DNA from: a virus
Taxonomy: Duplodnaviria; Caudoviricetes
Direction: 5' to 3' (one strand)
IMG/VR virus record: IMGVR_UViG_3300017782_004909
Location: 1-53,604 of that record
Length of the DNA: 53,604 nt
This document shows, in pieces, positions 1 to 13,404 of this stretch; within the stretch, counting starts at the first letter, position 1; every line of letters starts with the position of its first letter. Both the position numbers and the translations under genes were made by a program. Under the pieces are notes generated by a model. It saw only the letters and a program-made list of their open reading frames with translations, searched no databases and was not told the DNA's origin.

Positions 1-333
1 CTTTGTGATTCTTGGATTACTTCCGAGAAACGCATTGACTCTTACAAGTCAACCGAGATTGACGACAGAATCGCTCACGACTTAATCGTGCGTGGCTTTC
101 GTAATGGGGCTTGCTCTAAGACTCAAGTGACTGACATTGTCAACCAATGGCACGCACCTCAACACGAGGACTTCGAGGGTCGTGACTTGTGGTCGCTTTC
201 AAACGCTTTCACAAATATCTATCGTGGGAATCTCACGAACACGGCAAAGCGTTCAGCCTCGCTTCACTCTGTGCTTGACACCTATGCGAACTCTCGCACG
301 CCTAAGGTGGCAGAGGTCATAAACGCTTCCTAG
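1..333 (+). CDS. DUF932/DUF945-like phage protein, 5'-truncated by window edge
   Basis: Frame 1 is open from base 1 (LCDSWITSEKRIDSY...) to TAG at 331-333. The C-terminal DLWSLSNAFTN motif is typical of DUF932-type proteins. Confidence 0.6.
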   Translation, partial: LCDSWITSEKRIDSYKSTEIDDRIAHDLIVRGFRNGACSKTQVTDIVNQWHAPQHEDFEGRDLWSLSNAFTNIYRGNLTNTAKRSASLHSVLDTYANSRTPKVAEVINAS

Positions 334-346
334 TCAAAGACTTACG
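318..346. repeat. Degenerate copy of 29-bp palindromic motif
   Basis: cataaacgcttcctagtcaaagacttacg; right half closely matches the copies at 413 and 463. Confidence 0.5.
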
Positions 347-384
347 ACTCGCTCTCCAAAATAACGGAGGGCGAGTTTTTTTTT
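347..384 (+). terminator. Rho-independent terminator
   Basis: actcgctctcc-aaaataac-ggagggcgagt stem followed by a T run, just after the stop at 333. Confidence 0.8.
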
Positions 385-412
385 AAATTTTTTTAAATTT
401 GTGCTTGACATT

Positions 413-441
413 CGTAAGTGCTTGATAGTCAACGACTTGCG
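413..441. repeat. 29-bp imperfect palindrome, copy 1
   Basis: cgtaagtgcttga-tag-tcaacgacttgcg. Confidence 0.8.
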
Positions 442-462
442 TGCGGCGGGCATGGCGCGTTT

Positions 463-491
463 CGCAACTTGTTGATATTCAACGACTTACG
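463..491. repeat. 29-bp imperfect palindrome, copy 2
   Basis: cgcaacttgttga-tat-tcaacgacttacg, starting 50 bp after copy 1. Confidence 0.8.
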
Positions 492-587
492 GAATTTCAC
501 TACCAGAACTTAATAATATGTTATATGTGGTTATGTGCCTTATTAACTCTTTATTTGGTTTGGTGAGGATTGTCGAGCTATTTGCAT

Positions 588-647
588 AAAAAAAGAATCG
601 GCAGGGAATTGTTTGAGATGAATTCGCTCGCACCCTTACCGACTCTT
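588..647 (-). terminator. Terminator-like hairpin with large loop downstream of RuvB-like gene
   Basis: On the minus strand aagagtcggtaaggg pairs with ccctgccgattctt (G-U pairs, one bulge), followed by a T run. Confidence 0.55.
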
Positions 648-670
648 AATATATAATGAAAACAACTACA

Positions 671-1600
671 TTAAATCTTAGTCAACACATTCATACCTTT
701 ACCACTTATCTCACGCTGACCATTTATCTTCATTAGTCCACGCTTGAGTAGATAAAGCTCTGCCTCTTTCTGAATCGCAGTCCTTGACATACCTGTGACT
801 GCTGACAACATCTGAAGAGAACAATTACCTCGCTCTTGGAGAATCTGTAACAACTCTACCTCTAGGTTGGATAATCCCATTGGCTTGATGTCTAGTATGC
901 CACACATCTTTTTCCAATCGGTTAAGCTATATGTGTTTTGATTGCTTCTCTCACAATACAACATAATCTCTTTTGTTCGCATAACTGCTGAACGAGCGTT
1001 GCCCCTTGTGGTTTCTGCTATCTCTGATAACACACCCTCGCCAAATGAAATCTCTGATGCGACAAGCTCGATGATTTGCCCCAACTCCTCGACTGAATAC
1101 GGACGGAAATCCACGATAGTCAGTCTGTCCTTGAACGGAGCGAACAACTTATCCATTTCGGTAGTAGCAAATATAAAACATTGCTTGGTGAAATCGAACG
1201 CAAAAATTTGTTCTGCGTGGTGAAACTCTTTGTAACTACCTTTCTCAGTATTGAATATAGTAAGGAAAGCATTGACTAAATCCTTTGGAAGCATATGTGC
1301 TTCATCAAACAAGATAGTAATCTCATTATTCATTACGATAGGTAGGAATATCTGCTCAAAGAATGAATTGGCATTCTTGATAGTAGAGCAGTTAATCTCA
1401 AGGAAAGCACGAGTGTCTCCGTCCTTGTTCTTGAGTGAAGAAGCGTAACGCTTGGCGAACTCAGTCTTACCCAAGCCCTTTGCCCCACTCAACATTAAGA
1501 ATGGTGCAGTACCTGTTTTGTTTTGTGCTTCTGAATAGAATGTCAGTTGTTTTTTTACTTCGTTCTGACCTACGAGGTTTTTATATGTGGTAGTTTTCAT
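671..1600 (-). CDS. ruvB: RuvB-like Holliday junction branch-migration AAA+ ATPase
   Basis: LVGQNEVKKQL, Walker A GAKGLGKT, Walker B LFDEAH, FATTE, FKDRL, GNARSA, and a C-terminal winged helix (GLSNLE...ELYLLKRGLM...GQREIS) as in RuvB. Confidence 0.8.
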   Translation of the reverse strand: MKTTTYKNLVGQNEVKKQLTFYSEAQNKTGTAPFLMLSGAKGLGKTEFAKRYASSLKNKDGDTRAFLEINCSTIKNANSFFEQIFLPIVMNNEITILFDEAHMLPKDLVNAFLTIFNTEKGSYKEFHHAEQIFAFDFTKQCFIFATTEMDKLFAPFKDRLTIVDFRPYSVEELGQIIELVASEISFGEGVLSEIAETTRGNARSAVMRTKEIMLYCERSNQNTYSLTDWKKMCGILDIKPMGLSNLEVELLQILQERGNCSLQMLSAVTGMSRTAIQKEAELYLLKRGLMKINGQREISGKGMNVLTKI

Positions 1601-1618
1601 AGTTGCGATAATGACAGG

Positions 1619-1888
1619 TTAGGATTGTGTGTCAACAAAATTGTGTACTTTAAATGAGATTTTTTCTTCAACCTCTTTTGGCTCTTGTGAAACAGAAACT
1701 TTTGTTTGGTTAGCTTCTGTGATTGATGCTCCCATCTTCTCTAGCCACACACGACTAATAGGGATAAGAGTAGCTGACCCACAAAATTGTTCTAGGTCTG
1801 CTAGTGTTACATTGGCAAATGAGTTTGCCCCTTTCTTTCTGCCACTACCTTGTTTACGAGGTGTGCCGTCTTTGTTTACTGTTTTCAT
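1619..1888 (-). CDS. Hypothetical protein with basic AT-hook-like N-terminus (possible DNA binding)
   Basis: GTPRKQGSGRKKG. The ATG at 1888 lies 7 nt after a promoter -10 box. Confidence 0.6.
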   Translation of the reverse strand: MKTVNKDGTPRKQGSGRKKGANSFANVTLADLEQFCGSATLIPISRVWLEKMGASITEANQTKVSVSQEPKEVEEKISFKVHNFVDTQS

Positions 1889-1923
1889 ACTACCCAATAT
1901 AGAGATAGTTTTATGTATGTCAA
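1889..1923 (-). promoter_or_regulatory. sigma70-like promoter, probably leaderless
   Basis: TTGACA-N16-TATATT-N7-ATG. Confidence 0.7.
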
Positions 1924-1965
1924 CTTTTTTTTAAATTTATTTAAATTTTTTTAAATTTTGGCATC

Positions 1966-2133
1966 TTATGTTTTTTTTAGTTTGGCTAGGTTCATCATAG
2001 AGTTTGACACTACGGCAAGAAATATTCCGTGCGATACCATACCACAAAAGAACAAGATAATTGATGCGATAAGACAACCGATAGCCATATTTGTCCAAGT
2101 CAATATTTGGCGACTATATTTTTTGGCGAGCAT
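1966..2133 (-). CDS. Small membrane protein
   Basis: Hydrophobic ORF MLAKKYSRQILTWTNMAIGCLIASIILFF..., in operon order. Confidence 0.5.
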   Translation of the reverse strand: MLAKKYSRQILTWTNMAIGCLIASIILFFCGMVSHGIFLAVVSNSMMNLAKLKKT

Positions 2134-2137
2134 TATA

Positions 2138-2209
2138 TTACTTAGCACCCCAAAAGCAGTTGACTACTAGAGCTATAAAGGTGATTACGATTATCATTAT
2201 CTGTTCCAT
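2138..2209 (-). CDS. 23-aa hydrophobic peptide (not in ORF track)
   Basis: MEQIMIIVITFIALVVNCFWGAK*; ATG 7 nt after the -10 box of a consensus promoter. Confidence 0.45.
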   Translation of the reverse strand: MEQIMIIVITFIALVVNCFWGAK

Positions 2210-2244
2210 ACCCTCTATCATACCATATAAAAAGTTCTTGTCAA
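2210..2244 (-). promoter_or_regulatory. sigma70-like promoter, probably leaderless
   Basis: TTGACA-N16-TATGAT-N7-ATG. Confidence 0.7.
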
Positions 2245-2321
2245 GCAATATTTGGATTTTTTTTCGATTGTCGAGCGATTTTTAAATGCCCCAAATTTTT
2301 TTAAATTTATTTAAATTTTGT

Positions 2322-2567
2322 TTAATCTTTCTTATTCTTGTCAAATAGCTTGTTTATTCTGTCCATCTCATCTTGCCAATATCTCTTCTGAAACGACTTA
2401 TCATATTCAAACAACGCTTTCGGTAAGAATGTAGCAGTATCATATAATATATCCCATAAAAAGATAAAAGTTCTTAGTATCGTTATACATACCAAGTATA
2501 TCGGTGTTAGAACCAATGCAGTAAAAAGCGTTATAATATAACCTAACCAATAATTTGAATTCTTCAT
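2322..2567 (-). CDS. Hypothetical membrane protein
   Basis: 81-aa ORF with hydrophobic N-half; upstream TTGCTA-N17-TATAAG. Confidence 0.6.
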   Translation of the reverse strand: MKNSNYWLGYIITLFTALVLTPIYLVCITILRTFIFLWDILYDTATFLPKALFEYDKSFQKRYWQDEMDRINKLFDKNKKD

Positions 2568-2665
2568 AATATCTTATAGAACAACATATTTTATATAGCA
2601 AAGTGGGGCAGTTCCCCATTCATCTCCATTTTGTACCATATATAATATCTTTTGTTTGTTTTCCC

Positions 2666-2884
2666 TTATATATCCTCTCTATGTATGTATCCTACATCTT
2701 TGATGAATTCGTGGGTTGAATTGCGATAAAATAGGGGCTTAGAGGGCTTTTTAGTATCTAATTTAATCTGTAAGTTGATTAGTTTGTCCTCTACCCATAG
2801 TAGAGCGTTGATTAATAGGCTAAGTGCGATATGCACAAATTTTAATAAATTTTTTATAATTTTTTTAAATAATTTTAAATTCAT
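2666..2884 (-). CDS. Hypothetical protein
   Basis: 72-aa ORF on the same strand as its neighbours. Confidence 0.5.
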   Translation of the reverse strand: MNLKLFKKIIKNLLKFVHIALSLLINALLWVEDKLINLQIKLDTKKPSKPLFYRNSTHEFIKDVGYIHREDI

Positions 2885-2924
2885 CTTTTTATAATTTATA
2901 ATGGGTTATAATATTGTTTGTAAA

Positions 2925-3383
2925 TTACCAACCATCTGTCTGATTGTTACCATAAGTCTTATCCTCTCTCAAGTCCTCATACTGATTTGTAGCTTCGTGA
3001 TAAGAATGGCTATAATTCCAATCTCTGCTCTCTGTATGTGTGGTCATTGGCATATTGAAAGCATAAGCTCTTAAACCATCTCGCTTGGCAAGTAATGTGC
3101 CTAACTCATCATACAACCCATTTAACTCTGCATAAAAGTCATATTCGGTGTCATACTTATAATACAATTCTTTCTTATCATCAATCTTGCATTTAACGAT
3201 ACGAATATCTTGTTCTGTATCGCTGATAAGTCTGTTTTGTATATCTGTTCTCGTATCAAGAGATTGTTGCCTAGCTTCTGTCTCCATTGCTTCTGCTTCA
3301 GCTTCTGCTTCTTGGATTTTTTTATGCTCTCGCAATTCTTTCATTGTCATTTCTGCTTCTGTCTTTTTTGGTGGTGGTTTCAT
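2925..3383 (-). CDS. Hypothetical coiled-coil protein
   Basis: Glu/Ala-rich helical ORF; ATG at 3383 (MKPPPKK) preferred over the TTG start. Confidence 0.65.
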   Translation of the reverse strand: MKPPPKKTEAEMTMKELREHKKIQEAEAEAEAMETEARQQSLDTRTDIQNRLISDTEQDIRIVKCKIDDKKELYYKYDTEYDFYAELNGLYDELGTLLAKRDGLRAYAFNMPMTTHTESRDWNYSHSYHEATNQYEDLREDKTYGNNQTDGW

Positions 3384-3470
3384 AATTGATACTGATGTTT
3401 GGTGTTTTGGTTGGTAATTTAGTCTGCAAAAAGGTTTCTGCAAAGTGATTATGTAGTGAATTTGATATTC

Positions 3471-3686
3471 TCATCTGATTTCGTAATTTTTAAAAAATTT
3501 TTTTAAATCTCTTTCTATCTTCTTTTTGTCCTCTTTACTTAATCTTTTTATCCATTCTAGGTCAACATCTTTCAAGTGAACACACTCATTAAAGCATATA
3601 CGATTACGCTTGTCAATGGGGAAAACATTATGTGTCTCAAAAAAATAAGCACAAGCTACGGAGTTTAACGAAACATAATTACTCAT
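3471..3686 (-). CDS. Hypothetical protein
   Basis: 71-aa ORF, start overlaps the upstream small ORF. Confidence 0.6.
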   Translation of the reverse strand: MSNYVSLNSVACAYFFETHNVFPIDKRNRICFNECVHLKDVDLEWIKRLSKEDKKKIERDLKKFFKNYEIR

Positions 3687-3780
3687 TCTCTAACTCCTCT
3701 CCCAATGCTTTGAGCCATTTAATGATTGATAAATATAATAAGGTCAAAACCCCAAAAATAATTATAGCACCCCAAATCAT
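3679..3780 (-). CDS. 33-aa membrane peptide (not in ORF track)
   Basis: MIWGAIIIFGVLTLLYLSIIKWLKALGEELENE*; fills the gap and overlaps both neighbours (ATGA junction upstream). Confidence 0.5.
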   Translation of the reverse strand: MIWGAIIIFGVLTLLYLSIIKWLKALGEELENE

Positions 3781-3986
3781 AATAGTTTACCTAAGTCTTT
3801 TCTTGATTTCAAATGTCTCTTGTATGCCCTCTCTTGTCTAGCATATTGTCTACTTTTCTGCCTACATTTGCGAGCGACAAAGTCTTTTTCATTGTCAACC
3901 CACAAACATAGCCACCAACAACTTAAACTAAATATAATAGTTGCTACTATAAAAAACATAACACCATATACTTCTTGAGGAATCAT
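3777..3986 (-). CDS. Small membrane protein
   Basis: One TM segment plus basic tail; upstream TTGAAA-N16-TATTAT-N5-ATG. Confidence 0.6.
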   Translation of the reverse strand: MIPQEVYGVMFFIVATIIFSLSCWWLCLWVDNEKDFVARKCRQKSRQYARQERAYKRHLKSRKDLGKLL

Positions 3987-4015
3987 ACCCTATAATAAAG
4001 GGTAGAATCAATTTT

Positions 4016-4297
4016 TCAATCTGCTTCCTCCCAATATCCATCTTCTTCGTTGTAAACAAACTTTGTACCCTCAGTCAATTCGCTTGGCTCACGATTCTCT
4101 GAGAAACATTCTTGTAAAACATCAACGACTGCCGAATCAGATAATTCGTTTCGTTCCATATCATAAAAGTTCAAGCTACCACCATTGTCATCGTCATCAA
4201 TAACAATGAGGATTTCTTGCCCTTTGTACTTAACATTTAAAGAGTGCAACACTCTTCTGTAAGTTTCTTCTGCTGATTTTGTAATTTCTATACTCAT
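4016..4297 (-). CDS. Acidic hypothetical protein
   Basis: 93-aa Asp/Glu-rich ORF whose start overlaps the upstream stop (ATGA). Confidence 0.65.
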   Translation of the reverse strand: MSIEITKSAEETYRRVLHSLNVKYKGQEILIVIDDDDNGGSLNFYDMERNELSDSAVVDVLQECFSENREPSELTEGTKFVYNEEDGYWEEAD

Positions 4298-4965
4298 AAA
4301 TCTTTTAATGTATCATCAATTTTCTTTTGTGCTTCGTCATCTAAGCCAAATGCAGTAACATCTACCACTTTATTCCAATCTATGTTTGCCATACCTAATT
4401 CTTCGAGAATGTCTGCAAACTCTTCATCTGTCTCAACCAAATTTTTGATTGCTTGAACTTTCTTCTTTCTCTCTATCAATTCAGAACCTTGTTTGTGAAA
4501 CTCATTGTTTGGGTTGTCACTAAAGAATTGTTGAATTTGACTCCTAGTCATAGACCAACACTCTCTAGGGAACGATTTTGGTGGTGGAGGAGCAGAATAA
4601 GTTTTCTTTGGTTGTAGCAACATAGGGTTTTTAAACTCTTCACAAATGACCCTACTGATTGCACATTCTATAAGATATGGTGCTTCAATGTCGCCATCTT
4701 GATATAACTCCATACAATCAGTAAACATCGTTTCTTCCATCAAATACTTGTTGAGGTCAAAGTTGTAGCTCTTATCTTCGCAGTTGTTGTGAAAAACCTT
4801 TTCTTGCATACTTGAGTATGGAATACCAAGATAGTGACCATATACTTTTTTAGAAGAGTTGCGAAAACCTTTGGTTCGTCTTTCCCAAATAGTGTTGAAT
4901 CCCAAGTAATCTTCTTCAAGAACTTGTGGTGCGATGCTGAGTAATTTTAATTTTATATCTTTCAT
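4294..4965 (-). CDS. Hypothetical protein
   Basis: Long ORF; ATG at 4965 (MKDIKLK) avoids overlap with the upstream gene. Confidence 0.7.
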   Translation of the reverse strand: MKDIKLKLLSIAPQVLEEDYLGFNTIWERRTKGFRNSSKKVYGHYLGIPYSSMQEKVFHNNCEDKSYNFDLNKYLMEETMFTDCMELYQDGDIEAPYLIECAISRVICEEFKNPMLLQPKKTYSAPPPPKSFPRECWSMTRSQIQQFFSDNPNNEFHKQGSELIERKKKVQAIKNLVETDEEFADILEELGMANIDWNKVVDVTAFGLDDEAQKKIDDTLKDL

Positions 4966-4982
4966 AATTTTTTTAAATTTTT

Positions 4983-5501
4983 TTAAATTATCCACGAGGG
5001 TTTGTTTTTCTTCCAAGTGGCAAAGGGTTTGTCGTGTTTGTAATACAAGCGATACTTACCGACTTCGTCAACAGAATCAAATGTTGGGTCTTGTCTGCAA
5101 GTCATATGGTCGCTGATAGCGATTGCAAAGGTTGTCTGCTCTATACTCTCGTCTGCCAAGTTGTCAGCACGAAAAGGGTGGTCGAAAGCCCAATGCAAGA
5201 ACTCTGCTGAGAAATGTGGCTTGAAGCCTCTGTCTAACCTCTCGACTTCCATAGCGAGAGAATGTTCAAGAAGCCATCTCATATTCCCAAAGGTAGCTCT
5301 CGCCCAAATAGAGCAAGGGTGCTTGTAGTAAGAGTGCTTGCGAGCAGTACCCTTTTGTGTCTTGGGTGCTGACTCAAGCGTCTCTAGTGAAAAGCAGTTG
5401 GCAACCATCTGTGCTGACTCTAGCACCATTTTGTTACAATGTTGGTCGCACAACCACTTGGCTGATTGAATTGGGTCTTGGTCTATACAAAATATATTCA
5501 T
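4983..5501 (-). CDS. Pyrimidine dimer DNA glycosylase / endonuclease V-like protein
   Basis: MNIFCIDQDP...CDQHCNKMVLESAQM, HPCSIW, YRLYY..K..ATWK: the pattern of the phage Pyr_excise-related family. Confidence 0.7.
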   Translation of the reverse strand: MNIFCIDQDPIQSAKWLCDQHCNKMVLESAQMVANCFSLETLESAPKTQKGTARKHSYYKHPCSIWARATFGNMRWLLEHSLAMEVERLDRGFKPHFSAEFLHWAFDHPFRADNLADESIEQTTFAIAISDHMTCRQDPTFDSVDEVGKYRLYYKHDKPFATWKKNKPSWII

Positions 5502-5956
5502 AGGTGTAGTTTGACTTTCTCCCAATACAAGTCAAGGTTTTTTTGCTTCTTATCGTTCTTTGGGTTATCCACTCGTTTCCAAGCAGAGCCACCACCATTC
5601 CAAATGAAAGCTAAGTGCTTTGCAGTTGGGTTCTCAATCCCTTTCATATAATGAGAAAAGATTTCTTGTGCGACAATGTATGCCATAGCACGATTGTATG
5701 CAACATTATGTGGCAGGTCTTGATTTGTGATTCTGTTATAATCAGCAATCATAATCTCTCGAATCTGTAACGAACCAATAGCATTTTCCTTTATGTTTAT
5801 AGCATAAGGATTATTGTTCGACTCTACCTTTTCGATAGCTACAATAACATCAATGACATCAACGCTACCAAACACTTGAGATGTGCAAGCCCTAACACAC
5901 ATCAAAACAAATGCGATAAGGACAATAACTTGTGCAATTTTTTCTAACTTATACAT
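5498..5956 (-). CDS. Lytic transglycosylase / lysozyme-like protein with N-terminal membrane anchor
   Basis: VES catalytic Glu, AIGSLQI and WNGG motifs; hydrophobic N-terminus. Confidence 0.7.
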   Translation of the reverse strand: MYKLEKIAQVIVLIAFVLMCVRACTSQVFGSVDVIDVIVAIEKVESNNNPYAINIKENAIGSLQIREIMIADYNRITNQDLPHNVAYNRAMAYIVAQEIFSHYMKGIENPTAKHLAFIWNGGGSAWKRVDNPKNDKKQKNLDLYWEKVKLHL

Positions 5957-6248
5957 AATAATCTCTGTTTTTCATTATAACCCAATTACCATTACCCTCA
6001 AGACCTATAACATTGTATTCGGTAAACTCAATGGCTTCATCGTGTTCCATATTGCTTGGCTCTTTCATAAATACTTCTATGATTTTCTCATAGTCGTAAA
6101 CTAGATAACCTAATGATGTTACTCCAACGATTGCATCGTTGAGTCCGTCTAATTTTAAACAATCTTCTGCAAGATATTCTTGCAACTCGATTGGTGCTTC
6201 ATTGTCGCCCTCATCTTCGAGGTATCCGTTTTCGTTCTGTATATTCAT
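5949..6248 (-). CDS. Conserved-looking phage hypothetical protein
   Basis: DGLNDAIVG...VYDYEKII...EAIEFTEYNVIG pattern recalled from phage hypotheticals; start uncertain (6248 or 6293). Confidence 0.6.
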   Translation of the reverse strand: MNIQNENGYLEDEGDNEAPIELQEYLAEDCLKLDGLNDAIVGVTSLGYLVYDYEKIIEVFMKEPSNMEHDEAIEFTEYNVIGLEGNGNWVIMKNRDYYV

Positions 6249-6367
6249 CTTTATAGTAGTTTTTATAAGATTCTTTTTGTGTTTCTTCTTCAAGTTTTGT
6301 TTGAAGCCAATTTAGAAAGTCGTTTTGTTCTTTACCATACGACTCGTTTTCGACAGACTTGTCAACA

Positions 6368-6776: not shown

Positions 6777-6852
6777 TTTTTTTAAAATTTTTTTAAATTT
6801 GTTATGGGTTAGTTTTTTGGTGGCTCGAATCGTCAAGCCACCAAATGTAAAA

Positions 6853-7050
6853 CTAATCTGATAAGTCGATAGCTTCATCTATCTCAATACTCTTATCGGA
6901 GAAATCTGTGCCGAACATTACTGAGTGAATGTCCTCAAAGGTGTCTAAGCATTTACGCTCATCTACCTCGCTATTTTTTTGAAAGGTTTTTTGTCCTTTG
7001 AATATAGTTTCGCCATACTCATCTTTGACTTTAAAGTCGAGACTACTCAT
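6853..7050 (-). CDS. Hypothetical protein
   Basis: ORF beginning MSSLDFKVKDEYG. Confidence 0.55.
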   Translation of the reverse strand: MSSLDFKVKDEYGETIFKGQKTFQKNSEVDERKCLDTFEDIHSVMFGTDFSDKSIEIDEAIDLSD

Positions 7051-7110
7051 AATTATAAAACATATAGAAGAGAAAAACAAAAAAACATAGGATAGTTACT
7101 AAACTTGTTA

Positions 7111-7977
7111 TCAATCTTGTTCTTCATCATAATCTTCCTCGTCATTATCGTGGTAGTTATAATCGTTTTCGTCATCATCTCGATGCTCGCCATCTGTATA
7201 AACACTATAATAAGGTGCTTCAATTTCTGATTCCTCTCTTGGAATTTCTTTGATAACCTCATACTTGCACACTCGCAACTTCTGACAAGAGCAATCGCTA
7301 GGCACGCTTACTGCATCTCTTGGGTTGAAACGAACAAGTAACAACTTGCCACCACCTGCCCAATCATTTGCATAATCAAACGAACCAATGTGCAATCCGT
7401 GAGAGCAACCATTTTCACGATTGTCGTCAACACAATTTCTAGCTACCTCAATAGTTGACCCAACAACATTTTTGATTTGACCACGCTCATTGGTTTGACC
7501 TTGTAAAACGATAGTGTGCTTGTTTCCACTCTGACTCCAATAGTCGTTACAAACTCCCTTGTATCCGATAACATATCCGTCATCATCAATCGGTAATTGT
7601 TTATAAGAAAGAAAGTCGTACAACTCTTCAACGGAATTGTTGCTTGGGTTATCTAGTAGATTCTTTACGAACTTAACGAAAGCAGAGCCAACATCTAATC
7701 CACTACCAAGCAAGTCTAACAACTTGTCGATAACTTTTCCGTGTAGTCTCTGTCCGTGATAATAAACTGCACCTTTGTCCACTACCAAGTCTCCATCAGC
7801 AAATGCTTCGACTTGCTTACGAATGTCTAGGTAGTCTATCGCAGTTTCAAAATCCCCACTTATCAATGCCTTTTTAAAAGGCTTAAAGTTTGGTTGTGAG
7901 GATTCAAGAGTATAAGGTTTGCCCTCATACAAAAGAGTCGCAGTTGACTCTGATACTATATATGGATAATTTGCCAT
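7111..7977 (-). CDS. rIIB: rIIB-like protein
   Basis: GYKGV..DY, RNCVDDNRENGCSHGLHIGS, VRFNPRDAVSVP.DC...KLRVCKYEV motifs; near an rIIA gene. Confidence 0.85.
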   Translation of the reverse strand: MANYPYIVSESTATLLYEGKPYTLESSQPNFKPFKKALISGDFETAIDYLDIRKQVEAFADGDLVVDKGAVYYHGQRLHGKVIDKLLDLLGSGLDVGSAFVKFVKNLLDNPSNNSVEELYDFLSYKQLPIDDDGYVIGYKGVCNDYWSQSGNKHTIVLQGQTNERGQIKNVVGSTIEVARNCVDDNRENGCSHGLHIGSFDYANDWAGGGKLLLVRFNPRDAVSVPSDCSCQKLRVCKYEVIKEIPREESEIEAPYYSVYTDGEHRDDDENDYNYHDNDEEDYDEEQD

Positions 7978-8007
7978 AAGAATTTTTTTGTTTTGTTAGT
8001 TAATAAT

Positions 8008-8769
8008 TTATACTTCTATACTAAAAGAACTCTTGTCGTTGTCAAGGACATCAGCCCAATACGAACAATCTTTCTCGCCTTTTTTTCTGTTCCAATATAT
8101 CGCCCTAGCAATAGCACTAGGAACATTATACATTGCCGAAAATTCTGTCCAATGGTTTTCCAACTCACGATACTTTGGTAAGTGTAGTGATTGGTCGTAA
8201 CCATACGCTTGGAATAAATGTGTGTCGCAACAAAATACTCCACAATCAAAAGTGTATATCATTTCTAAAGCGAAAGATACTTTAGCCATACCTAATCCAA
8301 GAATGTCTTTGACAAGGCTATCTCTGAATTCTGACCACTTCTGATTTTTTTTAAATTTAAATAAATTTGGGTTCTGCCAATATTTTCTAGCGAACTCGCT
8401 GATAAACTTTGTTCGGTTGTTGTATAATCCAACACCACTACCTTTAAGTTTGTCGAATAAGACATCATCTTTGTTGAACCATTCTGTAAAGTCCTTAATT
8501 GCAAGATAACCTCGCATATTGGACTCGTAGGAGGTATGGACTGAACAAAAGGCAAACAACCACCTTTGAAATACATCAACATCATTTGTGGGTTTGAGTC
8601 GTTCCCATACAACACTATGGTCAATAATCTCGTCTTCTGTAATTGAAGCGAAGAACTTTTCGACATCTGTCTTGTTATGTTTCTTAATATGTACTCTATT
8701 CTTTTCATCTAGGAATGATAGTTGTTCAGTTGGTTTATTCTCTGTGTAGGATAAAAAATCTAATTGCAT
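8008..8769 (-). CDS. HhH-GPD superfamily DNA glycosylase (OGG2-like)
   Basis: RDSLVKDILGLGMAKVSFAL helix-hairpin-helix followed by CDTH catalytic Asp motif. Confidence 0.7.
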   Translation of the reverse strand: MQLDFLSYTENKPTEQLSFLDEKNRVHIKKHNKTDVEKFFASITEDEIIDHSVVWERLKPTNDVDVFQRWLFAFCSVHTSYESNMRGYLAIKDFTEWFNKDDVLFDKLKGSGVGLYNNRTKFISEFARKYWQNPNLFKFKKNQKWSEFRDSLVKDILGLGMAKVSFALEMIYTFDCGVFCCDTHLFQAYGYDQSLHLPKYRELENHWTEFSAMYNVPSAIARAIYWNRKKGEKDCSYWADVLDNDKSSFSIEV

Positions 8770-8776
8770 AATATTT

Positions 8777-8817
8777 AAAAATTGTGTCGGCTAGGAACTA
8801 CCACACTCCTAGCCGAC
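8777..8817 (-). terminator. Strong hairpin between rIIA and the glycosylase gene
   Basis: Perfect 11-bp stem gtcggctagga / tcctagccgac; on the minus strand followed by acaattttt. Confidence 0.5.
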
Positions 8818-8825
8818 TATGATTA

Positions 8826-10967
8826 CTACTCTCCGATATACGCTAACACATCAGAAATACTTGTCGGTCTGTCGCTAATGCAACCCTCAAGGCAATACTT
8901 TGCCATAGGAAACGCTTTGTCGAACGCTCGCTTCCTCGCTAATGATTCGCCACTTAACTTCTGTGACTTGAGTCTTTCCATCACATAGTCGTGATTGTAA
9001 TTTTGATTGTAAACTTTTGATTGTTTCAATCTCCAACCATTATAATTTTTTAATAAATTTTTTAAAATTTCATTTAGGTTATCTTTTGGGAACTTAGCAA
9101 TATCTTCCATCAAGGTTTTGTCGTACCCATCAAAAAGCTCTTTCTCTTCGTACCACTTAACATAGTTTTGAATACCCTCGTCTTGCTTGACCAAATCTTC
9201 ATAGACATCATCAAGGCAAATCCAATTATCCTTTTTCTCAATTCGACTCTTTAGGTTTTTACGAACACCCCAAATGCTTTCTTTGAAATTAGGAATGTTT
9301 GATAAATAATTTCTAATGAAATTGTAAGGATTAATTTCACATTCGCCACTTGCACCAAGGTGTTTTCTGTAAGGCTCGAAAGTAATTTTGTTCGCATAGT
9401 AATTAACATAATAGAATGTCTTACTATCGTCATCAAAATCTACATCTTGGTTTATTCCCCAAAAGGAATCAAGATTTGCCCACTCGTGTTGAATACTAGA
9501 GTCAAACTTTAGAATATCCATAGCTGATAAAGATTTCACAACACCTTTCTTCCTAGCTTTCTGTGGAGCAATCATTCGCTCGCACTCTGATAGCAGTTTG
9601 ACATTTGGGTGGTTACAATCTTTGACTCGCTGAACACACAACGCTTGGGTGTCGTATGTGCCATCAATACTATCGGCTTTCATACCCTCTGAATTGATAA
9701 GCACAATCTTGGCGAATCCTCTGTCTATCTTATTCTCTTTCTCAAAGTCGTGTAAGAACAGACATCTTGACTTTGGAGAGCGAGGACTTGGAGAATCATC
9801 AACGATATAAATAACTTTATCACTTGGAGAGTTATCATTGTAACTATACCTTGAATGAGAGAAGCTTAAGTTACCATTTTCTCTAGTGGTAATGTGGGTT
9901 TCTTTGGCAATCCATTCTTTAGGAAACAAACAACCATTCACATCTTTGAACTTCTCAGAAGAGACTTTGAGCTTTGTGCCGAATCTCTGTCTGTAAGTTT
10001 CCATAGCTCTGTACATAATCTCACTAGCTTCATAGAAAGTATCAGCCTTGTCCATCTGACTAGCTAACTCTTCATTGAGCTTGGCGAATATCTTATCTGA
10101 TGCTTTCTTGAGAGCTTGTTTGACTGATGGACTATACTCCAATGTCTCACGACTATGGTGCAACTTAAACTCTCCAATCTCTGCTTTGTAAACAAGACCA
10201 TTCTTGAACATAAACCATTCTTCATCTTTGTTTACCTTGTATGGAATACCACCCATAAGAACATAAGGGTCGTCTCCATAGTGAGCGACATCTTCCCAAT
10301 AACTATTCTCTTTATACAAATCAAATACATCATTGGATTCTTGTGGTTTGCCCAATCTTAAATCTCCCCAATCTTCATTGAGTAGTTTAATATCATCTTT
10401 ACGATACCACCAAGTTTTTTTAAAAATTTTAAAAAATTCTTCAATGTCATTTTTTTTGATTCCTACTTGTACATAGATTCCATCAGCTTCTTTAGTTGGC
10501 TGACTTTCAATCTGTGAGACAATGGTATCGTCTTGTTCGTCCACTCTTATAATATAGGAATGTTTGTGACCTTGGTGTACTGACCTTACAATAAAAGAAT
10601 CTGTGTACGATAAGGGTGCGAATCGCCCAATGCCGAAACCACCGATTGATTCGTTGGAGTCACGCTTGGTTGACTTACCATACTTAGTATAAAGACCAAG
10701 CATATCTTCCTCACTCAAACCACACCCAAAATCTCGTACTATAAAGTTTGGTTCAATTTGGGTTGGTAATTGAATATCTACCTTTTTACTTTTACTAACA
10801 TCAAGTGCATTTGCAATAATTTCACGAATGGTAGCCAACAACGGATTAGAATAGTTGTTCCGTAAAAGAGAAGCGATATATCGCATATCCTCTTGGTCAA
10901 TCGAACAAGACCTTTCTTTAAAGTCTGCTGATTTAGTTATGTTTTTGTGGTTGGATTTAATAATCAT
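8826..10967 (-). CDS. rIIA: rIIA-like protein (N-terminal GHKL ATPase)
   Basis: REIIANALD, VRDFGCGLS, YGKSTKRDSNESIGGFGIG, SRETLEY. Confidence 0.85.
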   Translation of the reverse strand: MIIKSNHKNITKSADFKERSCSIDQEDMRYIASLLRNNYSNPLLATIREIIANALDVSKSKKVDIQLPTQIEPNFIVRDFGCGLSEEDMLGLYTKYGKSTKRDSNESIGGFGIGRFAPLSYTDSFIVRSVHQGHKHSYIIRVDEQDDTIVSQIESQPTKEADGIYVQVGIKKNDIEEFFKIFKKTWWYRKDDIKLLNEDWGDLRLGKPQESNDVFDLYKENSYWEDVAHYGDDPYVLMGGIPYKVNKDEEWFMFKNGLVYKAEIGEFKLHHSRETLEYSPSVKQALKKASDKIFAKLNEELASQMDKADTFYEASEIMYRAMETYRQRFGTKLKVSSEKFKDVNGCLFPKEWIAKETHITTRENGNLSFSHSRYSYNDNSPSDKVIYIVDDSPSPRSPKSRCLFLHDFEKENKIDRGFAKIVLINSEGMKADSIDGTYDTQALCVQRVKDCNHPNVKLLSECERMIAPQKARKKGVVKSLSAMDILKFDSSIQHEWANLDSFWGINQDVDFDDDSKTFYYVNYYANKITFEPYRKHLGASGECEINPYNFIRNYLSNIPNFKESIWGVRKNLKSRIEKKDNWICLDDVYEDLVKQDEGIQNYVKWYEEKELFDGYDKTLMEDIAKFPKDNLNEILKNLLKNYNGWRLKQSKVYNQNYNHDYVMERLKSQKLSGESLARKRAFDKAFPMAKYCLEGCISDRPTSISDVLAYIGE

Positions 10968-11002
10968 TCCTCACATAAAATAGATTTATATGAGTATGTC
11001 AA
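10968..11002 (-). promoter_or_regulatory. sigma70-like promoter for rIIA
   Basis: TTGACA-N16-TTTTAT-N7-ATG. Confidence 0.55.
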
Positions 11003-11034
11003 ACAGAAAAAAGCACCACAAGTGTGTGATGCTT

Positions 11035-11063
11035 CGTAAGTCGTTGGTTTTCAACGATTAAAA
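11035..11063. repeat. 29-bp imperfect palindrome, copy 3
   Basis: cgtaagtcgttgg-ttt-tcaacgattaaaa; same consensus as 413 and 463. Confidence 0.7.
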
Positions 11064-11077
11064 ATTTTCATTTTTTT

Positions 11078-11191
11078 TTACTTTTTACCAAGAACCTTGT
11101 TGATAAGAGCCTTACCTTTACTTAAAAGACAACACTTCTTACCTACAAAATATCCAATAAAAAATACTACTAAAAAAGATACAATATCCAT
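11078..11191 (-). CDS. 37-aa membrane peptide (not in ORF track)
   Basis: MDIVSFLVVFFIGYFVGKKCCLLSKGKALINKVLGKK*. Confidence 0.5.
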   Translation of the reverse strand: MDIVSFLVVFFIGYFVGKKCCLLSKGKALINKVLGKK

Positions 11192-11208
11192 AATTTTTTT
11201 AAATTTTT

Positions 11209-11505
11209 TTAATTCTTTTTGGGACTTTTCTTAGGAGTCGTTTTATTGGCAACTCTTTTCTTAGCTACCTTTTTTTTAGCAGTCTTTTTAGTTGCAGTTT
11301 TCTTTGGCGTAGAGGCGATTTTTTCTGCCATTTTCTTAGCTACCTCTTTCTTGCCACTACTTGCGTAGGTTGGCTTGGTTGCGTATGATGTCTTATTTGG
11401 CTCACAAGACTTCGTTGAGCATTTCTTGCCCTTCTTCCATTCAATAATGGATAGGACAACTATAGCACCTACAATGTAGGTTAGTGGGTTTGATAATAAT
11501 TCCAT
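11209..11505 (-). CDS. Membrane-anchored Lys/Ala-rich (histone H1-like tail) protein
   Basis: N-terminal TM followed by KKTATKKTAKKKVAKK repeats. Confidence 0.7.
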   Translation of the reverse strand: MELLSNPLTYIVGAIVVLSIIEWKKGKKCSTKSCEPNKTSYATKPTYASSGKKEVAKKMAEKIASTPKKTATKKTAKKKVAKKRVANKTTPKKSPKKN

Positions 11506-11548
11506 ATATATATACTTATTTGCGATTTATTTTATTTGGTGAGCGATT

Positions 11549-11827
11549 TTAGACTTCGTCTGAGTCTTTATGTTTATCTGTGATGTGACGCTCTTGAATA
11601 AGAATCTTAAGTTTCATATTCAATCTAATCATATCATTATCTAATGATTGTACTTGCTTCTTTAGCTTTCCTAATGAAGCACCCACATCACTTAAAGCAG
11701 GATTTACTTTTGTTGTGACCCATTTCCAAATGTGCCAAACAAAGAATCCGAGTCCGATTAACGCTATTAGCGAGAATCCGAATTTGCTGACTAGGTCAGC
11801 CCAATGTTGAAATTCATATCCACTCAT
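11549..11827 (-). CDS. Single-TM coiled-coil protein, holin-like
   Basis: KFGFSLIALIGLGFFVW TM, then LDNDMIRLN coiled coil; resembles its upstream neighbour. Confidence 0.6.
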   Translation of the reverse strand: MSGYEFQHWADLVSKFGFSLIALIGLGFFVWHIWKWVTTKVNPALSDVGASLGKLKKQVQSLDNDMIRLNMKLKILIQERHITDKHKDSDEV

Positions 11828-11844
11828 AATATCTTATTTGGCTT

Positions 11845-11872
11845 ATACTAACTCGAAAAGTGATTTTGTCAA
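11845..11872 (-). promoter_or_regulatory. sigma70-like promoter
   Basis: TTGACA-N16-TAGTAT. Confidence 0.6.
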
Positions 11873-11873
11873 G

Positions 11874-12158
11874 TTAATCATCTCGACAATCCTCTTTGCC
11901 CTCACTCGCTGCAATTCTATCCATATTTGGCTCACAACCAAACGCACACGAAAATTGTGCATCAATCTTTACTATGTCGTTGTTCATTACATCTACTTTA
12001 TTTTCGAGCGATAGTAACGAGTTTGAAATACTTGAAATCTTGTCTGTTACTTGAGCTAAAAGAAATTTAATAATAATAAACAGAAACCAACCAACTGCCA
12101 ATGCACTTGTAATTGGTACTCCTATTTGTTCTACAAAGTTTAATATATCTCCTATCAT
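11874..12158 (-). CDS. Single-TM coiled-coil protein, holin-like (YvrJ-like GxP motif)
   Basis: QIGVPITSALAVGWFLF TM, then MNNDIVKID coiled coil. Confidence 0.6.
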   Translation of the reverse strand: MIGDILNFVEQIGVPITSALAVGWFLFIIIKFLLAQVTDKISSISNSLLSLENKVDVMNNDIVKIDAQFSCAFGCEPNMDRIAASEGKEDCRDD

Positions 12159-12195
12159 AATGTCTTATTTGGTTTTTTTTTAATCGTCAAGCGAT

Positions 12196-12681
12196 TTATC
12201 CTTTACGTCCTCCTGGTGTGAAGTAGAATCCAATGATTGCCCCCAAAGTGGTGATTGCAACAAGAGAGATGTGTCCCGTCGTAATACTGGTGGTAATATC
12301 TGCTCCACTCGGGAAAGTAATGAGTCCCCAGAGGATTTGGGTGGGTTCTTTATTTTCGGGGGGAGTGAAGGTGACGAGAGTGACTCCAGGGTAGAGGGTG
12401 CAGAGTATCGAGATGATTGCAAAGTTGAGCATCCCCATAAAAGCGATAAGACGACGAGTAGCACGAGTAAACATGCCAGTATCTTTGTCAGTTTCGCCAA
12501 TGAGCATTTTTTGAAATTCAATGTCCATTCCACGGATTTGCATGTCTCTAATAAGTTCACGACGTTCTTTCGCAGCTTTAGACTCTGAAATACCTTGAAA
12601 AGTGCCACCAAGAATCTTAAGCATACTGCCCATCCCAGTCGCCCCAAGTGTCGATAATAGCATCGTGACAAGTCCAAACAT
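12196..12681 (-). CDS. Multi-TM holin-like membrane protein
   Basis: Hydrophobic N-terminus, two further TM segments, C-terminal IIGFYF; start supported by GTGTAA-N8-ATG. Confidence 0.6.
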   Translation of the reverse strand: MFGLVTMLLSTLGATGMGSMLKILGGTFQGISESKAAKERRELIRDMQIRGMDIEFQKMLIGETDKDTGMFTRATRRLIAFMGMLNFAIISILCTLYPGVTLVTFTPPENKEPTQILWGLITFPSGADITTSITTGHISLVAITTLGAIIGFYFTPGGRKG

Positions 12682-12689
12682 AACTTCAT

Positions 12690-12695
12690 TTACAC
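12690..12695 (-). promoter_or_regulatory. GTGTAA motif (putative phage late promoter)
   Basis: GTGTAA-atgaagtt-ATG. Confidence 0.6.
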
Positions 12696-12720
12696 TATAA
12701 TAATACTATTTGGAAATTTT

Positions 12721-12966
12721 TCAACTGTTAGGCGTAAACTGAAAAGCTATTCTGCCATATTGATGCTCTTTATCGCCTATCCAAGCAGAAAATTCAATAA
12801 ATGTTTCTCCTACGATAAATTCAAGCAATTCTACAAAAAACTCCTCATTTTGAAATTTAAGGGTGTAGTTTTTATGAAATTGATAAACCAATTCTCCTTC
12901 ACCAGATTTGTCCATTAGTCTTTTGCAACCATCATTGGTGCCTATTACTTTTAAATGACCTTTCAT
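12721..12966 (-). CDS. Hypothetical protein
   Basis: 81-aa ORF preceded by GTGTAA-N8-ATG. Confidence 0.65.
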   Translation of the reverse strand: MKGHLKVIGTNDGCKRLMDKSGEGELVYQFHKNYTLKFQNEEFFVELLEFIVGETFIEFSAWIGDKEHQYGRIAFQFTPNS

Positions 12967-12974
12967 ACTATATT

Positions 12975-12980
12975 TTACAC
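12975..12980 (-). promoter_or_regulatory. GTGTAA motif (putative phage late promoter)
   Basis: GTGTAA-aatatagt-ATG. Confidence 0.6.
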
Positions 12981-12981
12981 A

Positions 12982-13404
12982 TTATTCTTCGACATTTCTT
13001 CTTTCAATGTCATCTTCTTCGCAGGCAATTCCTCTCTGAATTTCCATCACATAACAAACAGAGTCTCCGTTGTTAGTAGCTTGGTGCCATTGACCCATAT
13101 TAACGTGACAAATTGCACCTCGAGCAAGTGGTCTATAATAAGAATATTGATCTTCACCCTCTGGTTCAGTTAAATACTGCTGTTCCATTAATGGCACTGT
13201 ATTAGAATCAATAGACAATTTCATCTCTAAGCCACCTTCCAATATTATCCAAGTTTCTGCTCTTTTAAAATGCCTTTGATCTGACAAAGATTGACCAGGA
13301 TTTATATAAAGATTTTTAATTTTATAGCTGTCGAAGGAGTCTGCACTACCAGTAACATGTTTAATTACTTCGTAATAACCCCATGATTTATTTACTTGTT
13401 CCAT
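12982..13404 (-). CDS. Mannose-6-phosphate isomerase type II-like cupin
   Basis: KSWGYYEV, INPGQSLSDQRHFKRAETW, WHQATN, EIQRG...EEDDIER. Confidence 0.8.
   Translation of the reverse strand: MEQVNKSWGYYEVIKHVTGSADSFDSYKIKNLYINPGQSLSDQRHFKRAETWIILEGGLEMKLSIDSNTVPLMEQQYLTEPEGEDQYSYYRPLARGAICHVNMGQWHQATNNGDSVCYVMEIQRGIACEEDDIERRNVEE

Follow-up and report, generated by a model that had tools for sequence, protein, structure and literature searches.

An 11.7-kb block of early-type genes kept free of a set of short words in an uncultured marine tailed phage

The stretch of DNA analysed here, hereafter the window, comprises 53,604 nt (IMGVR_UViG_3300017782_004909, positions 1 to 53,604; Duplodnaviria; Caudoviricetes) and derives from the genome, roughly 120-136 kb in size, of an uncultured marine tailed phage. 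Gene annotation describes a phage with a large genome, siphovirus-like tail genes and DnaE-type replication. No nucleotide match of the window is present among 50,697 phage records. Among the matches listed, TerL comes closest, in cultured phages, to proteins of Bacillus, Clostridium and Lactococcus siphoviruses (22-28% identity), and the matches of TerL and rIIA together belong to other phage groups, all at no more than 32% identity; by the nucleotide, TerL and rIIA comparisons, among the matches listed, the window is not a member of the Tequintavirus/Demerecviridae lineage. Six close relatives from other metagenomes (G001, G002, G004, L001, L003 and L005; rIIA 87-94% identical) and a more distant one (G003, ~70% identical), whose homologous block is syntenic with the island described below, were available for comparison. 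When G001 and G003 are combined, their map closes into a circle; the related contigs are all classed as linear fragments, with no end repeats reported. The features that matter here are as follows (coordinates, strand, description).

1-333 (+), 3' portion of the gene that closes an array of small plus-strand gene cassettes; the array lies beyond the window's left end and is oriented towards the island (ORF list)
346-400 (+), intrinsic-terminator-like hairpin and T-run of the plus-strand gene (terminator scan), overlapping the A-tract motif copy at 378-400
410-497 (-), ~85-nt element in which two 27-nt palindromes flank a GC-rich hairpin, marking the island's left edge
378-11216 (+), 23-nt phased A-tract motif TTTTTTTAAATTTTTTTAAATTT, 11 matches in the same orientation, A-rich on the coding strand
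504-12204, site-free island of 11,701 bp, both strands purged (word counts), common to six close relatives
671-1600 (-), clamp-loader/RuvB-like AAA ATPase (family matches, as for the next six lines)
4983-5525 (-), Pyr_excise-like DNA glycosylase
5498-5956 (-), SLT-like transglycosylase
7111-7977 (-), rIIB
8008-8769 (-), Ogg-HhH-like protein (DNA-glycosylase-like)
8826-10967 (-), rIIA
11549-11827 and 11874-12158 (-), two paralogous small membrane proteins, phrog_18771
12159-12204 (-), right-edge spacer with a TTGACG box, between the stop codon of the gene for a conserved 161-aa membrane protein and the first island gene
12205-13148 (-), remainder of the interval 1-13148, with the purged words at ordinary density
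12196-19714 (-), unpurged genes immediately upstream of the island and co-oriented with it (ORF list, family matches)
12982-13404 (-), cupin-like protein in the non-purged flank
14476-19200 (-), 1574-aa N/T/S/G-rich protein with no family match

The island holds about 22 ORFs, all on the minus strand (671-12158), and many of those outside the list above encode small membrane proteins or proteins without an assigned function. The match between the depleted zone and a region of small, early-type genes, which the earlier note had proposed, is thus borne out. The flanking genes at 12196-19714 and the tail genes, which begin at 19735, are transcribed in divergent directions. The plus-strand gene at 1-333 has no Pfam match; the region homologous to the cassette array reaches 4.7 kb further left in G002 and ~2 kb further in G004. 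In G003, a gene for an HNH/endonuclease VII-like protein adjoins the array.

The island has regulatory elements of its own. Several promoter-like sites of host type (TTGACA-N16-17) accompany genes that all lie on one strand, and the terminator scan places strong terminators on the minus strand at 11035-11010 and 8817-8786. The motif TTTTTTTAAATTTTTTTAAATTT is matched 12 times in the window, against 0.01 by chance; 11 of these matches lie within 378-11216 (with an overlapping pair at 6777/6778), and some copies sit just 5' of TTGACA boxes or ATG start codons. The half-site of the 27-nt palindrome has four matches in the window, confined to 327-491 and 11035-11054, against 0.03 by chance. Copies of the ~85-nt element number about 10 in G003 and three in G002; no Rfam family was found in the related array locus L016, which the scan covered rather than the window copy.

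What sets the island apart is the complete loss of a defined set of short words. The window contains 88 GATC sites, the first at 13149 and the next at 13278, 13793 and 14370, and 30 GGCC sites, the first at 14590; these positions are exactly those that the earlier note had read by eye. Its estimate that a few dozen GATC sites would be expected in 1-13148 also holds: none is present, where base composition predicts 43.1, a maximal-order Markov model 40.0 and the density over the remaining window 28.6 (for GGCC, none against 14.2, 11.0 and 9.7, respectively). These two words under-describe the depletion, as seven further tetramers or tetramer pairs, as well as pentamers, are also missing. Within the island the count is zero for GATC, ACGT, CATG, GGCC, GCGC, CGCG, CCGG, CCGC/GCGG, CCCG/CGGG and CCAG/CTGG, and for the pentamers ACCGT/ACGGT, CACTG/CAGTG, ACAGC/GCTGT and CATCC/GGATG. 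The density outside the island, where 88 GATC and 283 CCAG/CTGG occur, predicts 80.0 CCAG/CTGG (binomial p 5e-31), 24.9 GATC, 22.3 ACGT, 21.5 CATG, 18.9 CCGC/GCGG, 9.3 CCCG/CGGG, 9.3 GCGC, 8.5 GGCC and 3.7 CGCG; the five commonest purged words have binomial p values between 5e-31 and 4e-8.

The purge is word-specific and not compositional. Nine of the 16 tetramer palindromes occur at normal levels in the island, with TCGA, AGCT, TGCA, CTAG and GTAC near or above expectation, and other words made only of G and C are likewise normal (GCCC/GGGC 25 against 24, CGCC/GGCG 18 against 23.7, CGGC/GCCG 11 against 15.5). CCAG and CTGG are each absent from the same strand of the island, while outside segments carry them at 27/27, 64/62 and 44/59. 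Since these asymmetric words are purged in both orientations, the constraint acts on double-stranded DNA. Avoidance comes in two tiers, with nine tetramers purged only in the island, and CCGG and CCTGA/TCAGG absent from whole contigs: CCGG from the window, G001, G003, G004 and G005 (Markov expectation 15-88), and CCTGA/TCAGG from the window, G001 and G002 (Markov expectation 28-53). Outside the island, the ratio of observed counts to Markov expectation is mildly low for GATC (0.62) and CATG (0.66), and 1.0 for GCGC.

Both edges are sharp, with a step of ~20 bp, and fall at gene boundaries. On the left, sites of the purged words cluster at 443-503, including a cluster at 443-456 carried by the ~85-nt element; on the right, the first sites are ACGT at 12205, CAGG at 12212 and CCAG at 12213. 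The limit at 13148 given in the earlier note for its ~13-kb zone lies ~950 bases too far to the right of the edge at 12204. Seven CCAG/CTGG sites fall in 12205-13000, and three ACGT and two CATG also precede 13149. The 944 bases at 12205-13148 lack GATC by chance only (~2 sites expected, P ~0.13, by arithmetic from the GATC density of the window). In an alignment of seven relatives, the density of sites shifts at the same intergenic spot, within a spacer of 31-110 nt, and in relatives the purged zone extends beyond the left end of the window.

Could the boundary be an assembly chimera, or another artefact? We give this next to no probability. The island is common to all six close relatives from other metagenomes, and the right edge is spanned, with conserved coding sequence on either side, by seven independent assemblies, which refutes a chimera; the stretch is present in 20 runs from 13 studies among the matches listed.

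The island is also maintained while its sequence changes. For divergences of 15.6, 11.1 and 9.8%, the number of new forbidden words predicted in the island by a substitution model is 103, 84 and 75, and the number observed is 2, 3 and 2; all other words have an observed/expected ratio of 0.86. In the flanks, the same forbidden words arise at 119 of 178, 93 of 124 and 85 of 104 predicted. That only 2-3 new sites stand against 75-103 expected at 10-16% divergence shows selection to be current; judged from these alignments, purifying selection against the words is an ongoing process confined to the island block, in keeping with the selected purge of the earlier proposal. The same counts contradict the idea that the island is a historical relic, imported from a lineage that avoided these words genome-wide and no longer selected. 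This idea would fit the tetranucleotide signature of the island, which, with forbidden words removed, correlates with other segments at r 0.37-0.59 while these correlate among themselves at 0.74-0.81, and would also fit the edges at gene boundaries and the lower aligned divergence of the island parts (10-16%, against 21-23% in the flanks). The signature and the lower divergence suggest that a partly separate history of the island is possible. Nonetheless, the block is syntenic in the 70%-identical relative with another purged set, and contains the core genes for rIIA, rIIB and the clamp loader, so that a relic is very improbable.

The homologous block is purged of partly different word sets in different lineages. 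In G003, it lacks GTAC (0 against 10.4) and GGCC (0 against 9.2) and is partially depleted of CCAG (29 against 79), CCGC (21 against 52) and GCGC (5 against 19.5), and GATC, ACGT and CATG are not purged. In a third clade, a GTAC-free run of 10.2 kb spans the cassette array.

What selects against these words in this block only? Host restriction endonucleases with short recognition sites are most likely the selecting agents, and a local, maintained purge at the level of double-stranded DNA is what restriction avoidance by early-exposed DNA predicts. We put at about even odds (roughly 0.5) the explanation that the island is early-exposed DNA kept site-free against host restriction before the phage is protected, with the rest of the genome entering or becoming exposed later. 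The purged words would then be restriction targets and the island would belong to a leading, possibly terminal, part of the genome. A point against it is that, to our knowledge, no enzyme recognises plain CCAG.

The closest parallel is the first-step-transfer (FST) region of T5, like the island a block of ~10 kb that holds small early genes behind strong promoters of host type. According to the available text of two sources, T5 and BF23 are restricted only if sites fall in this region, restriction and CRISPR act on T5 only at FST targets, and pre-early functions protect everything outside it (PMC10644984; bioRxiv 10.1101/866236). Such biology would be expected to select for a local purge of the kind found here. 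The two regions nevertheless have no sequence relationship, and homologues of A1/A2 were not found among the 42 proteins scanned. The T5 region lies in a long direct terminal repeat at the genome end that enters first, in a two-step transfer, which for the island would be predicted by analogy, and it is bounded by a ~1-kb non-coding injection-stop region with repeats, in contrast to the spacer of 31-110 nt at the right edge of the island, which directly follows a stop codon and leaves little room for a terminus or for such a stop. The left side of the island has repeated 85-nt palindromic elements. When checked on the T5 sequence, the FST region itself has no tetramer-free signature, so the step from signature to mechanism has no positive control here.

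Two other systems resemble the island in part. The early genes of T7-like phages (Autographiviridae) are co-oriented and read by the host polymerase, and the island genes are likewise co-oriented behind TTGACA-type boxes; the sensitivity of T7-like marine phages to a Type I system depends, as far as the available text reports, only on motifs that lie in the part injected early (PMC12455610). That case concerns one Type I motif, whereas the island lacks many 4-bp words, and T7-like phages with Ocr are a different virus type, with no Ocr-like protein recognised among the proteins scanned here. The leading region of conjugative plasmids enters first, is rich in anti-defence genes and is depleted of short palindromes in some groups; this depletion is reported, in the part of the source available, as partial and plasmid-group-specific (10.1101/2025.04.03.647016). 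This DNA enters single-stranded and its depletion is partial, whereas removal from the island is complete, with edges sharp to 20 bp. Classical genome-wide avoidance is matched by CCGG and CCTGA/TCAGG but not by the nine other tetramers, which are purged locally and common elsewhere. Earlier avoidance surveys, as the Discussion of PMC12455610 puts it, ignored the genomic position of sites.

In a competing view, the whole genome enters at once and the island is set apart by immediate transcription, or by shielding of the rest alone through co-injected DNA-binding proteins, a compartment, or modification by enzymes outside the recognised families. The map that closes as a circle, the end repeats that are not reported, the right edge without room for a terminus or stop signal and the island's own regulatory motifs, which fit a distinct temporal class, are all compatible with it, as is a weak glycosyltransferase-like match at 37688-39373, within the replication module (E 6.7e-5, which falls short of the Pfam cut-off). 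With equal exposure, however, any single cut is lethal, and uniform selection would be expected instead of 0 against 80 across a 20-bp step. We know of no region-specific DNA modification in phages. The earlier note had also implied an anti-restriction or modification function and proposed looking for a Dam-like methyltransferase elsewhere in the genome, and neither was found in the sequences scanned. Genes for a DNA methyltransferase (Dam-like or other), TGT or ThyA were not found in five related contigs that jointly cover the map (profiles PF01555, PF02086, PF00145, PF01702 and PF00303, each in 0 of 5), so the rest of the genome is not visibly self-methylated, and known modification genes are missing for a shielded genome as well. 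PHROG and Pfam recognise no A1/A2-like, Ocr-like or known anti-restriction protein among 22 island, 10 flank and 10 array (G002) proteins. The most acidic small island protein (4016-4297, pI 4.1) has a confidently predicted fold (pLDDT 85.7), no PDB sequence match and no fold match to solved structures at E<=0.001. Overall, entry at once is unlikely.

Alternatively, the forbidden words may be targets of early short-site nucleases of the phage itself, with an island that must survive and a remainder exposed after their shut-off, similar to Davison's hypothesis of own-nuclease immunity for T5 A1, as given in the available text of bioRxiv 10.1101/866236. A complete, word-specific purge at the double-strand level would be explained equally well, the island is rich in proteins without an assigned function, and an HNH/endonuclease VII-like gene lies beside the array in G003. 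Yet at least nine specificities would require many nucleases, none of which is recognisable in the island, and word sets that differ between close clades are better explained by host systems that vary than by phage enzymes that are conserved. Staged entry would still be required as well, and we regard this alternative as quite improbable.

The ~85-nt GC-rich elements, which occur at the left edge and all along the array, contain GCGC, CGCG, CCGC, GGCC and CCGG. Should these words be targets of restriction and the array be early-entering DNA, the elements would be liabilities for restriction avoidance. The interpretation offered in the earlier note, first-entering or terminal-repeat DNA purged of sites with the rest protected later, is partly supported.

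In conclusion, under restriction avoidance by early-exposed DNA, the island block, probably together with the adjoining cassette array, would be naked in the cell until an early function of the phage neutralises restriction. The remaining DNA would enter or become accessible only later, as for the first-step-transfer DNA of T5 or the early region of T7, and enzymes beyond the reach of this early function may be met by genome-wide avoidance of CCGG and CCTGA/TCAGG.

That the window is free of GATC before 13149 and of GGCC until 14590, as the earlier note had claimed, is borne out by computed counts: the first of 88 GATC sites lies at 13149, the first of 30 GGCC sites at 14590, and no GATC is found in 1-13148, where base composition predicts 43, a maximal-order Markov model 40 and the density of the remaining window 28.6. 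When all strand-symmetrised tetramers are compared between 1-13148 and the remaining window, the strongest contrast is that of the non-palindromic CCAG/CTGG (8 vs 276). A 1-kb site map and the list of missing words delimit a block at about 504-12204, here called the island, from which the following tetramers are missing altogether.

Table. Tetramers with 0 occurrences in the island, and the number expected from their density outside it.
GATC: 24.9
ACGT: 22.3
CATG: 21.5
GGCC: 8.5
GCGC: 9.3
CGCG: 3.7
CCGC/GCGG: 18.9
CCCG/CGGG: 9.3
CCAG/CTGG: 80.0

The pentamers ACCGT/ACGGT, CACTG/CAGTG, ACAGC/GCTGT and CATCC/GGATG, which contain none of these tetramers, are likewise absent. Both edges are abrupt: forbidden words cluster at 443-503 on the left, and on the right ACGT at 12205 and CCAG at 12213 are followed by normal density; over 20 bp the density of CCAG/CTGG climbs from 0 to about 7 per kb. 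The boundary previously drawn at 13148 therefore holds for GATC itself, but the true right edge of the purged block lies at about 12204, and the further 944 GATC-free bases up to 13148 are within chance.

Could base composition or an effect at the RNA level account for these absences? Composition is rejected as the cause, because GC content is 0.358 in the island, against 0.342 elsewhere, and other G+C-only tetramers are normal in the island (GCCC/GGGC, 25 vs 24 expected; CGCC/GGCG, 18 vs 23.7; CGGC/GCCG, 11 vs 15.5). TCGA even exceeds its expected count, and AGCT, TGCA, CTAG and GTAC fall not far short of theirs. Purging of endoribonuclease sites in RNA is rejected because the asymmetric words are missing in both orientations on the same strand: CCAG and CTGG are both at 0 on one strand of the island, while the counts outside are 27/27, 64/62 and 44/59. 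The constraint thus acts on specific words in double-stranded DNA.

All ORFs at 671-12158 lie on the minus strand, and the block holds early-type small genes including rIIA and rIIB, in agreement with the earlier proposal that the depleted zone matches an early-type small-gene region. The features in and next to the island are:

671-1600, minus strand: clamp-loader/RuvB-like AAA ATPase
4983-5525, minus strand: Pyr_excise-type glycosylase
5498-5956, minus strand: SLT-type transglycosylase
7111-7977, minus strand: rIIB
8008-8769, minus strand: Ogg-HhH-like protein (match at the Pfam cut-off)
8826-10967, minus strand: rIIA
directly at the island's right edge, minus strand: two paralogous small membrane proteins
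14476-19200, minus strand: N/T/S/G-rich protein of 1574 aa adjoining the tail genes, with no Pfam or PHROG match
551-583, 2249-2281 and 12165-12197: 33-nt repeat family, 70-73% identity

The remaining small island proteins, about 15, gave no informative family match. Upstream of the island, non-purged genes on the same strand are followed by divergent tail genes and then by a DnaE/DnaB/primase replication module; the 1574-aa protein is probably a fibre or receptor-binding protein. A tRNA scan found no tRNA, and a flanking-repeat test for a mobile element listed near both edges only the one weak 33-nt family. AAGGAG/CTCCTT is also absent from the island (0 vs 23 outside), and start regions inside and outside it are without a clear Shine-Dalgarno sequence.

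Several promoter-like TTGACA-N16-17 sites and two strong terminators lie inside the island. Two further elements are almost confined to it. The first is a 23-nt phased A-tract motif with 12 matches in the window (0.01 expected), 11 of them at 378-11216 (two overlap) in one orientation; the twelfth, outside this interval, is weak. The second is a 27-nt palindrome half-site with four matches in the window, at 327-491 and 11035-11054. Some A-tract copies directly precede TTGACA boxes and others ATG codons, so some predicted ORF starts in the island may be wrong. A strict UP-element-plus-TTGACA scan gave one site only, and the motif is therefore not simply a promoter element.

The island is shared by related phages. 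A search of IMG/VR with rIIA returned seven loci, and the six at 87-94% protein identity all carry the same island; at the seventh, at 65% identity, it was not seen for GATC. In the whole contigs compared (G001, 82.9 kb; G002, 64.6 kb; G004, 40.5 kb) the island is the sole such zone in each, with longest CCAG/CTGG-free runs of 10.4-11.9 kb (approximate log10 P -25 to -32). Seven sequences aligned over the right edge have conserved coding sequence on both sides of it, and site density changes at the same intergenic spot in all seven (spacer 31-110 nt), which excludes the assembly chimera that the earlier note had named as an alternative. Of the 24 marine or viral metagenome runs listed, 20, from 13 studies, contain the stretch. 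Among cultured phages the window's phage has no close relative: megablast of the first 14 kb against 50,697 phage records gave no match, and the protein matches listed for rIIA, DnaE and TerL are at or below 32% identity. A search of an atlas with rIIA returned viral clusters only and no host clue.

A genome size of about 136 kb follows from CheckV completeness values. At its right end G001 matches G003, a relative of about 70% nucleotide identity, in a place 35-41 kb left of the window, which closes the map into a circle; about 26 kb separate TerL from the island. Several long contig ends (those of G001, G002, G004, the further related contigs G008 and G009, and the window) fall within a few kb of the junction between the island and the gene array to its left, which either marks a hot spot of assembly breaks due to variable cassettes or hints at real ends.

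The absence of forbidden words is maintained now, and inside the block only. We aligned the island by blastn with three relatives (9.0-9.9 kb aligned; divergence 15.6, 11.1 and 9.8% for G001, G002 and G004) and computed expected new tetramers from a base-substitution matrix estimated on these alignments.

Table. New sites of ten forbidden words, observed/expected, in the island and, for the same words, in the flanks.
G001: island 2/103; flanks 119/178
G002: island 3/84; flanks 93/124
G004: island 2/75; flanks 85/104

The model ignores codon position, with the flanks and all other words serving as calibration, the latter at an observed/expected ratio of 0.86 in the island in each of the three comparisons. 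Where the island can be aligned, it has diverged less from these relatives (10-16%) than the alignable flanks have (21-23%), and the tetranucleotide signature of the island differs somewhat from that of the rest of the window. Such low divergence is unusual for an early region and may reflect recent block exchange between strains.

In G003, the homologous block lies at 18700-30470.

Table. Words in the G003 block, observed and expected.
GTAC: 0, 10.4
GGCC: 0, 9.2
GCAGC/GCTGC: 0, 13
CCAG/CTGG: 29, 79
CCGC/GCGG: 21, 52
GCGC: 5, 19.5

GATC, ACGT and CATG are not purged in this block, which is covered by a GTAC-free run at 17666-33899 and a GGCC-free run at 16524-30580; in a third clade, a GTAC-free run of 10.2 kb extends over the array. 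Different lineages have thus purged the same region of the genome, but of word sets that differ in part. Alongside this local purge there is classical genome-wide avoidance: CCGG occurs nowhere in the window, nor in G001, G003, G004 or G005, another related contig (Markov expectation 15-88), and the non-palindromic CCTGA/TCAGG is missing from the window, G001 and G002 (28-53).

Left of the window, G002 and G004 continue into an array of small plus-strand cassettes that converges on the island. The cassettes are separated, about every 1-1.5 kb, by elements of about 85 nt in which a GC-rich hairpin lies between two 27-nt palindromes:

window, 410-497: one copy
array locus L016 of G002, 530-613, 2578-2612 and 2920-3002: one copy each
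array locus L018 of G003, 10537-19998: about ten copies

An Rfam scan of the elements in L016 found no family; they could combine a terminator with operator sites. The most conserved array gene (L016 1080-1781, minus strand, in G002) encodes a protein of 233 aa, 44-100% identical across clades, that belongs to PF17338 (GP88) and phrog_1617, both of unknown function. GATC is still missing where G002 extends 4.67 kb past the window, and the GATC-free runs of G002 (18,249 bp) and G004 (15,289 bp) reach the contig end. Outside the GC-rich elements, which hold most of the GCGC, CGCG, CCGC, GGCC and CCGG sites of the array, G002 beyond the window has about 7 forbidden words where about 79 are expected from outside density. 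This puts the length of the purged zone, with its interruptions by the GC-rich elements, at 16-18 kb or more, a lower bound as both contigs end inside the array. Searches with an array protein, a neighbouring protein and TerL for the far-left edge in the window's clade gave other clades or contigs that break in the array.

What would confine such selection to one block? Equal exposure of the whole genome would give uniform selection, and the step in CCAG/CTGG density therefore argues for unequal exposure, for which staged or slow DNA entry would be known biology. Passages in PMC10644984 and 10.1101/866236 describe T5 and BF23 as restricted only if sites lie in the first-step-transfer region, passages in PMC12455610 limit the effect of motifs in T7-like marine phages to the early-injected region, and 10.1101/2025.04.03.647016 mentions evidence of palindrome depletion in the leading regions of certain plasmid groups. 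Given unequal exposure and these precedents, we take as the best explanation the idea of the earlier note that first-entering DNA is purged of restriction sites: the island would be exposed to host restriction before protection, and the remaining genome would be protected later. We give the complete chain about even odds. Two polarities are conceivable: with a physical end at the right edge, the island genes would be transcribed in the same direction as the DNA enters, as in T7; with the right edge as an inner stop point, the array would lead, as in T5.

Several observations weaken this explanation. The right edge has no stop-signal-like region, forbidden words occur inside the GC-rich elements of the array, and the island differs from its surroundings in tetranucleotide signature and in its lower divergence. 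Nor is there a positive control, since the first-step-transfer DNA of T5 (L135 1-9700), unlike the island, is not free of any tetramer palindrome. That DNA is strongly depleted in AGAG/CTCT (14 vs 72 expected from the rest of the T5 genome, p 8e-18), and several further purine-run words are scarce in it as well. No recognisable anti-restriction gene was found either. A small, very acidic protein considered as a candidate DNA mimic (4016-4297, minus strand; 93 aa, pI 4.1, invariant DDDDNGG motif) has a confident predicted fold (pLDDT 85.7) with no PDB sequence match and no fold match at E<=0.001, and homologues in close relatives only. As to later protection, the Dam-like methyltransferase that the earlier note had proposed to look for elsewhere in the genome did not appear: five contigs jointly covering the map, which are fragments of related phages rather than the window's own complete genome and in which unknown enzyme families would escape, gave no match to PF02086 (Dam-type methyltransferases), PF01555 (N6/N4 DNA methyltransferases), PF00145 (C5 methyltransferases), PF01702 (TGT/DpdA) or PF00303 (thymidylate-synthase-like hydroxymethylase).

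The principle that only first-entering DNA need be free of restriction targets is established from experiments with T5-like and T7-like phages. As a genomic signature, this principle has hardly been described: we found, in the open-access literature searched, no phage genome reported to contain a site-free island with sharp bounds and several missing words, and passages of a 2025 paper (PMC12455610) describe earlier avoidance surveys as ignoring the position of sites. Apparently undescribed in that literature are the full removal of nine tetramers and several pentamers, its sharp bounds, its maintenance by selection, its lineage-specific words and the second, genome-wide tier, in a lineage unrelated to T5 and T7.

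The signature is extreme, conserved and shifting between lineages. It could serve as a sequence-only marker of staged DNA entry in uncultivable phages, as a catalogue of the restriction specificities that act among the hosts, and as a pointer to a broad anti-restriction function among the roughly 15 small island proteins of unknown family. Taken together, and as a tentative reading that we consider rather doubtful in its entirety, staged genome delivery may have evolved in a marine siphovirus-like lineage that is abundant, uncultured and unrelated to T5 and T7. The island edges would then mark the amount of DNA exposed before protection, the local words would be host restriction specificities, and local as against genome-wide words (CCGG, TCAGG) would separate the enzymes that a putative island-encoded broad anti-restriction function neutralises from those that it does not. 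If this reading is true, first-entering DNA, injection polarity and host restriction repertoires could become readable from sequence alone across viromes.
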